Positions 29,037 through 29,098 of a stretch of DNA of 64,000 bases are shown here, in pieces. The stretch lies in NCBI RefSeq assembly GCF_001677475.2, contig NZ_CP015229.1. One strand, given 5' to 3'. Below the pieces are notes generated by a model that did no database searches, was not told the DNA's origin, and saw only the letters and a list, made by a program, of their open reading frames with translations. Positions within the stretch are counted from its first letter, which is position 1. The number at the start of each line of letters is the position of its first letter. Source of the DNA: Escherichia coli (GTDB lineage: Bacteria; Pseudomonadota; Gammaproteobacteria; Enterobacterales; Enterobacteriaceae). The translations under genes were made by a program, and so were the position numbers.

Positions 29037-29098
29037 GGGATTTGAACCCCCGGTAGAGTTGCCCCTACTCCGGTTTTCGAGACCGCTGATACCGGATT
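29037..29098 (-). tRNA. serU: truncated tRNA-Ser: 3' 62 nt only (anticodon stem to CCA); likely prophage att core duplicate
   Basis: minus strand reads GGTCTCGAAAACCGGAGTAGGGGCAACTCTACCGGGGGTTCAAATCCCCCTCTCTCCGCCA; no GGAGAGA 5' acceptor strand upstream. Confidence 0.65.

Follow-up and report, generated by a model that had tools for sequence, protein, structure and literature searches.

A displaced 3' fragment of serU as the probable attR core of a lambdoid prophage in Escherichia coli

The locus considered here lies in a 64,000-nt stretch of Escherichia coli DNA (contig NZ_CP015229.1), the whole of which was analysed and is called the window below. To the left of a tRNA remnant, the gene order is msrPQ, zinT (26910-27581) and yodB (27894-28454), as in E. 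coli, with yodB and zinT also annotated in the matching genomes; the vacant site in K-12 reads yodB, serU (minus strand) and mtfA. Upstream of the serU locus, the host sRNA genes DsrA and RseX (10782-10868 and 19204-19293) stand in the chromosomal surroundings expected of them, and this confirms that the left half of the window is syntenic with E. coli. The features that make up the junction and its surroundings are as follows.

28455-29023, no strand assigned: native chromosomal flank on the 3' side of the tRNA, made up of the yodB-serU intergenic region and identical to K-12 directly after CCA
29024-29085, minus strand: displaced serU 3' fragment of 62 nt, the probable attR core; an exact K-12 serU suffix match, not callable as a tRNA and annotated as pseudo tRNA-Ser in KU052038
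29067-29085, minus strand: 19-nt crossover interval CGGTCTCGAAAACCGGAGT, delimited on one side by polymorphisms in GB089 and LR882057 and on the other by the arm/core boundary
29086-29207, minus strand: phage-derived P arm of attR, 122 nt and 26% GC, homologous to attP P arms and common to 959 complete E. coli genomes at the same junction
29126-29132, plus strand: TTGGAAT repeat, a candidate integrase arm-type site (inner, inverted relative to the tRNA sense), restricted to the P arm and present in all attP contigs
29188-29196, minus strand: TTGGAATAT repeat, a candidate integrase arm-type site (outer, direct in the tRNA sense), whose motif recurs three to four times in the P' arm beside the integrase gene
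29086-64000, no strand assigned: right-hand (late/tail) part of a lambdoid prophage that runs past the window end, recognized from Pfam matches and from collinearity with the GB089 and N96 prophages

The reference used to define the fragment was serU (tRNA-Ser CGA) from the annotated K-12 record. The fragment, matched over 62 nt with no mismatch, is the longest K-12 serU 3' suffix present when the whole window is searched, and it lies on the minus strand, with the terminal A of CCA at 29024 and the anticodon-stem end at 29085. It starts at base 2 of the anticodon stem (CGGT-CTCGAAA-ACCGG) and then continues through the variable arm, the T arm and the 3' strand of the acceptor stem to CCA. A 25-nt probe for the T arm and acceptor, allowing up to three mismatches, found one match in the window and none in 100 shuffles, and no second serU copy was detected within the 64-kb window by ARAGORN, by suffix matching or with this probe. 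The initial annotation had placed a 62-nt tRNA-Ser 3' part, from anticodon stem to CCA, at 29037-29098 and had given it no strand. The length is right and so is the identity (62/62 to K-12 serU, with just the first base of the stem absent), the exact suffix match coming from the alignment with a reference serU that had been suggested as a check. The coordinates are 13 nt off, as the interval 29037-29098 misses the last 13 nt, that is, the acceptor 3' strand and CCA, and takes in 13 nt of phage arm; the strand is now established as minus.

A functional tRNA-Ser has a full cloverleaf with a 7-bp acceptor stem, and the fragment has neither. The 5' 28 nt of the tRNA are missing at this locus, and the sequence that replaces them has a GC content of 26% against 51% for the window. 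No acceptor 7-mer resembling GGAGAGA occurs within 300 nt upstream of the fragment, in agreement with the earlier statement that the 5' acceptor strand is absent and AT-rich sequence stands in its place. When the 90-nt span of a full gene was folded, the hairpins of the variable arm and T arm still formed, with no acceptor stem and with the 3' TCTCTCCGCCA unpaired; a complete cloverleaf, which the initial annotation had named as the observation that would count against it, is thus not found. ARAGORN called no tRNA at the fragment, its sole calls in the window being tRNA-Gly and tRNA-Thr at 60068-60221, and Rfam reported none there at the gathering threshold. At E ≤ 10, no tRNA match is listed at the fragment in a table from which two lower-scoring matches of the same clan were omitted. 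The Rfam matches near the fragment at E ≤ 10 were set aside as spurious low-score families, such as a plastid 3'UTR model, similar to an antisense tRNA-Ser and matched on the opposite strand. No minus-strand promoter-like site was found upstream of the fragment, so there is no sign of its own expression. The displaced fragment has no tRNA function of its own.

To the right of the junction, the prophage reads, from attR, cargo slot, tail fibres, lom, J, tail, head, terminase, lysis, tRNA-Gly/Thr, Q, RusA and DUF968. This is a lambda-like late gene order ending at an att site, as expected of a lambdoid prophage, and it is seen in the Pfam matches (tail fibre, Lom and DUF4376, the last in a tail-fibre-assembly-like gene), in the ORFs for Q, RusA and DUF968 at the window edge and in the collinearity with other prophages. 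The slot between attR and the tail fibres holds the following.

29240-29971, plus strand: cargo/immunity-like module, recognized from Rfam gathering scores and a Pfam ORF6N match (E=9e-22)
29240-29314, plus strand: isrK-like sRNA (Rfam gathering score)
29340-29421, plus strand: C4 antisense RNA (Rfam gathering score)
29468-29971, plus strand: ORF6N-domain gene, 3'-truncated (Pfam ORF6N, E=9e-22)
29956-32365, plus strand: IS21-family insertion sequence inside the 3' end of the ORF6N gene (Pfam IstB_IS21, E=9e-62; ends placed by comparison)

The ORF6N protein is 167 aa long in the window versus 186 aa for the intact form in LR882057. The insertion sequence carries istA (30049-31548, 499 aa) and istB (31545-32300, 251 aa), has a target duplication of about GTTTAA, and its boundaries, derived from the comparison with LR882057 and from a Logan contig end, are accurate to about 2 nt. 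None of the complete E. coli genomes of the collection has an insertion sequence at window position 29956-32365, and the same junction was recovered from draft assembly GCA_002516285.1 and from several SRA read sets. The stretch from 29204 to 29971 is an immI-like module, made up of a promoter-like site (29204-29233), the isrK-like sRNA with a terminator-like hairpin, the C4 antisense RNA and the ORF6N gene, which is KilA-N-like and of the antirepressor type. The module resembles c4-icd-ant of phage P1 and isrK-orf45-anrP of Gifsy-1. In E. coli GB089, only the first ~40 nt of isrK are retained.

Different parts of the prophage have different closest relatives. The head/tail module (35242-54703, 19.5 kb) is 99.1% identical to a prophage of N96 near yccA, which has a different site and a different integrase from the serU prophages, whereas the late-regulatory/lysis region (55615-64000) is 99.8% identical to the serU prophage of GB089, whose head/tail genes are only 80-86% identical to those of the window. 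The window prophage is a mosaic. Its late regulatory region carries, downstream of Q, a phage-borne pair of tRNA-Gly(UCC) and tRNA-Thr(UGU) genes (60068-60221, minus strand), which the prophage of N96 and the serU prophages of GB089 and strain 41 carry as well. Within the prophage, the segment 57787-58342 has a match to the STnc100 sRNA (58167-58342, minus strand) beside a 111-aa ORF, and this ORF corresponds to a gene annotated as the anti-adapter protein IraM in the collinear GB089 prophage.

An attR site should have native flank on the tRNA 3' side and mobile-element DNA on the tRNA 5' side, and here K-12 flank stands on the one side and the P arm followed by lambdoid late genes on the other. 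The fragment pins the border between phage and chromosome to the base, at 29085|29086, so the earlier claim that it fixes the prophage boundary stands with a corrected position. Its value is chiefly annotational, as the window contains only the late half of the prophage and the fragment predicts where the integrase and a functional serU regenerated by the phage are to be found.

Phage DNA should in turn hold a matching contiguous attP beside a tyrosine integrase. An initial, exact attP pattern built on the P arm of the window had no match among viral contigs, because this arm ends in ...ATCAG and those of the attP contigs end in ...ATCAT. The search that succeeded was anchored on the core/P' junction only. 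It found 68 loci in IMG/VR, of which about 59 are attL sites with an intact tRNA 5' half upstream and seven are true attP sites (contigs L033, L040, L059, L060, L072, L073 and L090). In all seven, a P arm homologous to window positions 29086-29207 joins the core directly and is followed by the P' arm. A tyrosine integrase next to attP was demonstrated in L033, a contig of 43.7 kb with the order four nleG effector genes, attP, a 341-aa tyrosine integrase and exonuclease. With P arm, core and P' arm contiguous in viral contigs, recombination of attP with serU gives exactly the attL of GB089 and the attR of the window. Other records were considered as attP and rejected: the prophage cut-outs 606R7 and 689R5 take in mtfA and asnT and hence represent attL, while ev099, PhiR70_1 and mEp332 have a bacterial-type fragment with ~278 nt of host flank and hence a fossil attR. 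In one further contig (L091, IMGVR_UViG_2698536484_000010), a sequence that matches neither the tRNA 5' half nor the usual P arm stands in front of the phage-type core and P' arm; it may represent a different P arm or a rearranged junction.

The P arm also contains the repeats expected of an integrase substrate. The heptamer TTGGAAT has two copies in the 64-kb window, both in the P arm (29126-29132 on the plus strand and 29190-29196 on the minus strand), and in GB089 five of the six copies in 50 kb fall within the att arms, three of them in the P' arm. The att-arm copies are all conserved in the attP contigs. Judged by this distribution, the TTGGAAT repeats are good candidates for the arm-type binding sites of the integrase. 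Those of the P' arm fall inside the 3' end of the integrase coding sequence.

Among 5,426 complete E. coli genomes, the attR junction was found in 959, counted where at least 80% of window positions 29040-29207 were covered, and the attL junction of the GB089 type in 1,142. The far end was examined in two of the attR-bearing genomes, GB089 and LR882057, both of which have an integrase, an intact tRNA-Ser and mtfA there. In GB089, the order is the partial tRNA beside yodB, a lambdoid prophage of ~47 kb, a DUF4224 gene, the tyrosine integrase, an intact 90-nt tRNA-Ser and mtfA; LR882057 has a 15-kb prophage remnant with both ends as in GB089. Strain 41 has the same attR end as the window, and the GenBank record of its phage SerU-LTIIb (KU052038) annotates the same 62-nt pseudo tRNA-Ser (9169..9230) beside yodB at the phage end. 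Both GB089 and LR882057 have an annotated frameshift in the serU-type integrase (L004 47347-48397 and L005 33831-34881), making excision competence uncertain even in those relatives, and many serU prophages may be locked in place in this manner.

The same two genomes show which copy of the tRNA 3' end is native. The phage and bacterial tRNA segments differ at two compensating positions of the variable-arm stem, with G and C in the phage version and A and T in the bacterial one. GB089 and LR882057 both show the phage G/C in the intact tRNA at attL and the bacterial A/T in the attR fragment (equivalent to window positions 29066 and 29055). The window fragment has the bacterial-type base at both positions. 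Phage bases at attL and bacterial bases at attR mean that the window fragment is the displaced 3' end of the native serU. The initial annotation had called this copy the partial duplicate, and that part of it has to be reversed: the copy that makes the gene whole again at attL is the one supplied by the phage. The “intact” serU found there is a hybrid with 3' 62 nt of phage origin.

The first of these polymorphisms and the arm/core boundary at 29085|29086 together confine the crossover to the 19 nt of CGGTCTCGAAAACCGGAGT, which include the inverted repeat of the anticodon stem and the 7-nt anticodon loop CTCGAAA (29075-29081). The block of identity starts at base 2 of the anticodon stem, and the 19-nt bound holds in two relatives and concerns the crossover, as distinct from the cleavage positions. 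An anticodon-centred (‘A’) class of tDNA att sites has been described for tyrosine integrases (PMC4383910), and by analogy the anticodon loop is probably the overlap region.

What lies beyond the window can be approached through GB089. The window and the GB089 serU prophage are collinear at 28224-29278 (99.1%) and at 55615-64000 (99.8%, up to the edge), and GB089 continues for a further 13.3 kb to the integrase and the intact tRNA-Ser, which places the expected far end near a window-equivalent of 77.3 kb. An intact serU and an integrase would therefore be predicted, consistent with the collinearity, ~13 kb past base 64000 and outside the window. Among complete genomes, the structural genes find their closest relative in N96, but its other site and other integrase disqualify it as a stand-in for the far end; given prophage mosaicism, the far end cannot be inferred from similarity of the structural genes. 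A search based on RusA returned 10 related prophages, none identical to the window, and exact matches to the truncated ORF6N protein came only from a draft contig (GCA_002516285.1) that ends in IS21 and from Logan unitigs of ~1 kb.

The ends of these unitigs are informative in themselves. Logan unitigs that match the window exactly, IS junction included, run from 29025 to 29984/29985. Their right end is the IS start (29956) plus 30, which validates k=31. At this k, the left end at 29025 is a branch point if a second copy of the 31-mer 29024-29054 differs at 29055; a second copy identical over the 62 nt would make the unitig start at 29056, and with no second copy there would be no break. The breakpoint, as a matter of assembly behaviour, supports the presence of an attL-type hybrid serU elsewhere in a genome of the same lineage.

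Taken together, these observations make it highly probable (about 0.93) that a lambdoid prophage has integrated into serU and that the 62-nt sequence forms its attR core. The signature of integration into a tRNA 3' end, which had been recognized at the outset, is upheld by the K-12 flank, the attP sites of seven viral contigs, the two ends in GB089 and LR882057 and the annotation in KU052038. In the proposed mechanism, a phage tyrosine integrase would recombine attP with chromosomal serU, attP consisting of the P arm, a ~62-nt copy of the serU 3' end and a P' arm that overlaps the 3' end of the integrase gene, and strand exchange would take place within the anticodon stem-loop. The native 5' 28 nt would thereby be joined to the phage-borne 3' copy, restoring an intact and functional tRNA-Ser beside the integrase (attL, near mtfA), while the native 3' part would be moved ~47 kb away to its position beside yodB and joined to the phage P arm (attR). 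The integrase would bind the TTGGAAT repeats, attL would be present in this genome, and the fragment with the arm-type repeats of the P arm would form part of the substrate for excision (attL x attR, by Int and excisionase).

The explanation that survives best beside prophage integration is that of a genuine serU attR that has been orphaned or re-partnered, so that later events changed the far end and it is not simply an integrase and an intact serU ~47 kb away. Homologous recombination between prophages, inversion, module replacement or a tandem second element at serU could have had this effect, and the element would then perhaps no longer be excisable. There are grounds for considering it, as the central 19.5 kb match the N96 prophage at another locus with 99.1% identity and an IS21 element has already inserted near the attR end; in addition, replacement and inter-prophage recombination are reported to be frequent at serU (PMC7067040), and integrative elements and prophages both use this site, including a prophage within a prophage (PMC8767318). 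It is nonetheless unlikely. At both ends that fall in the window, the last 8.4 kb among them, the prophage is collinear with that at serU in GB089 (99.1-99.8%); the Logan breakpoint at 29025 points to another copy of the tRNA 3' end, carrying the phage-type base, in the lineage; and attL junctions are about as numerous across E. coli as attR junctions (1,142 vs 959).

Truncation of serU by a deletion or by an insertion sequence, leaving a tRNA pseudogene unrelated to phage integration, might be suggested by the IS21-family element 870 nt away and by a fragment that is non-functional as a tRNA. The alignment with attP effectively refutes it, as the break coincides to the base with the attP/serU identity boundary in the seven attP contigs and the adjoining 122 nt are P arm; moreover, 959 genomes without the IS at that position share the junction, and the IS target duplication sits within the ORF6N gene and not at the tRNA. 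A complete but unusual tRNA-Ser missed by tRNA finders, for which the persisting hairpins of the variable arm and T arm could be cited, is likewise refuted by the lack of an acceptor 5' strand within 300 nt, by the unpaired 3' TCTCTCCGCCA of the fold and by the silence of ARAGORN and Rfam, including the Rfam table at E ≤ 10.

As the attR of a serU prophage, the junction is a textbook displaced tDNA fragment of an already known kind, and the same form is annotated in GenBank record KU052038. That a displaced tDNA fragment marks the end of a tRNA-integrated element is a general principle, and the locus agrees with the Islander principle, in which integration splits the target gene, the element restores it and a displaced 3' fragment stays behind at the island end (PMC4383910). 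With an identity block from the anticodon stem to the 3' end and a crossover bounded to the anticodon stem-loop, it would probably belong to the ‘A’ class of att sites, and it differs from these descriptions in nothing material. serU itself is a published hotspot for lambdoid prophages and integrative elements in STEC (PMC8767318, PMC7067040). It is occupied in about one-fifth of complete E. coli genomes, and the fragment adds no new biology.

The closest described counterparts are SerU-LTIIb (KU052038) and the serU prophages of STEC O121:H19 and O145:H28, which occupy the same site between yodB and mtfA (PMC8767318, PMC7067040). They likewise have a 62-nt pseudo tRNA-Ser beside yodB, a P arm of 98% identity, tail-fibre genes nearest to attR and the phage-borne tRNA-Gly/Thr pair. 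The differences lie in the cargo beside attR, which is isrK/C4/ORF6N cut by IS21 in the window as opposed to LT-II toxin genes or nleG effectors in those prophages, and in the head/tail module, which is of another lineage in the window. The comparison with phage lambda is similarly two-sided. As in lambda attP, the serU attP has two AT-rich arms with a short repeated motif (two copies in P and three to four in P'), a core flanked by an inverted repeat, an adjoining integrase gene and, in the excisionase position, a small DUF4224 gene upstream. Unlike lambda, with its 15-bp core and its gal-bio intergenic site, the core here is 62 nt of tRNA and the target is a tRNA gene, the serU-type P' arm overlaps the end of the integrase coding sequence, and the repeats are candidate arm sites recognized from their sequence.

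A junction resembling attR also occurs in free lambdoid phages, namely ev099 (LR597635, 24443-24903; L020), mEp332 (PV340541, 43696-44156; L019) and PhiR70_1 (PV340577, 46231-46413). There, the P arm is joined to a serU fragment of bacterial type and to ~278 nt of yodB-side E. coli flank with 97% identity to K-12, an arrangement that has the look of a relic of aberrant excision or of past recombination with a serU prophage. That the attR junction and its flank are themselves mobile, being kept in phages as a homology route into, or for recombination with, resident serU prophages, is very unlikely and is required by nothing in the window; if it were true, junctions of the window type would be hotspots of module exchange beyond their role as passive scars. 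In the free phages, the junction is placed between a tail-fibre assembly gene and an AraC/transposase/integrase block.
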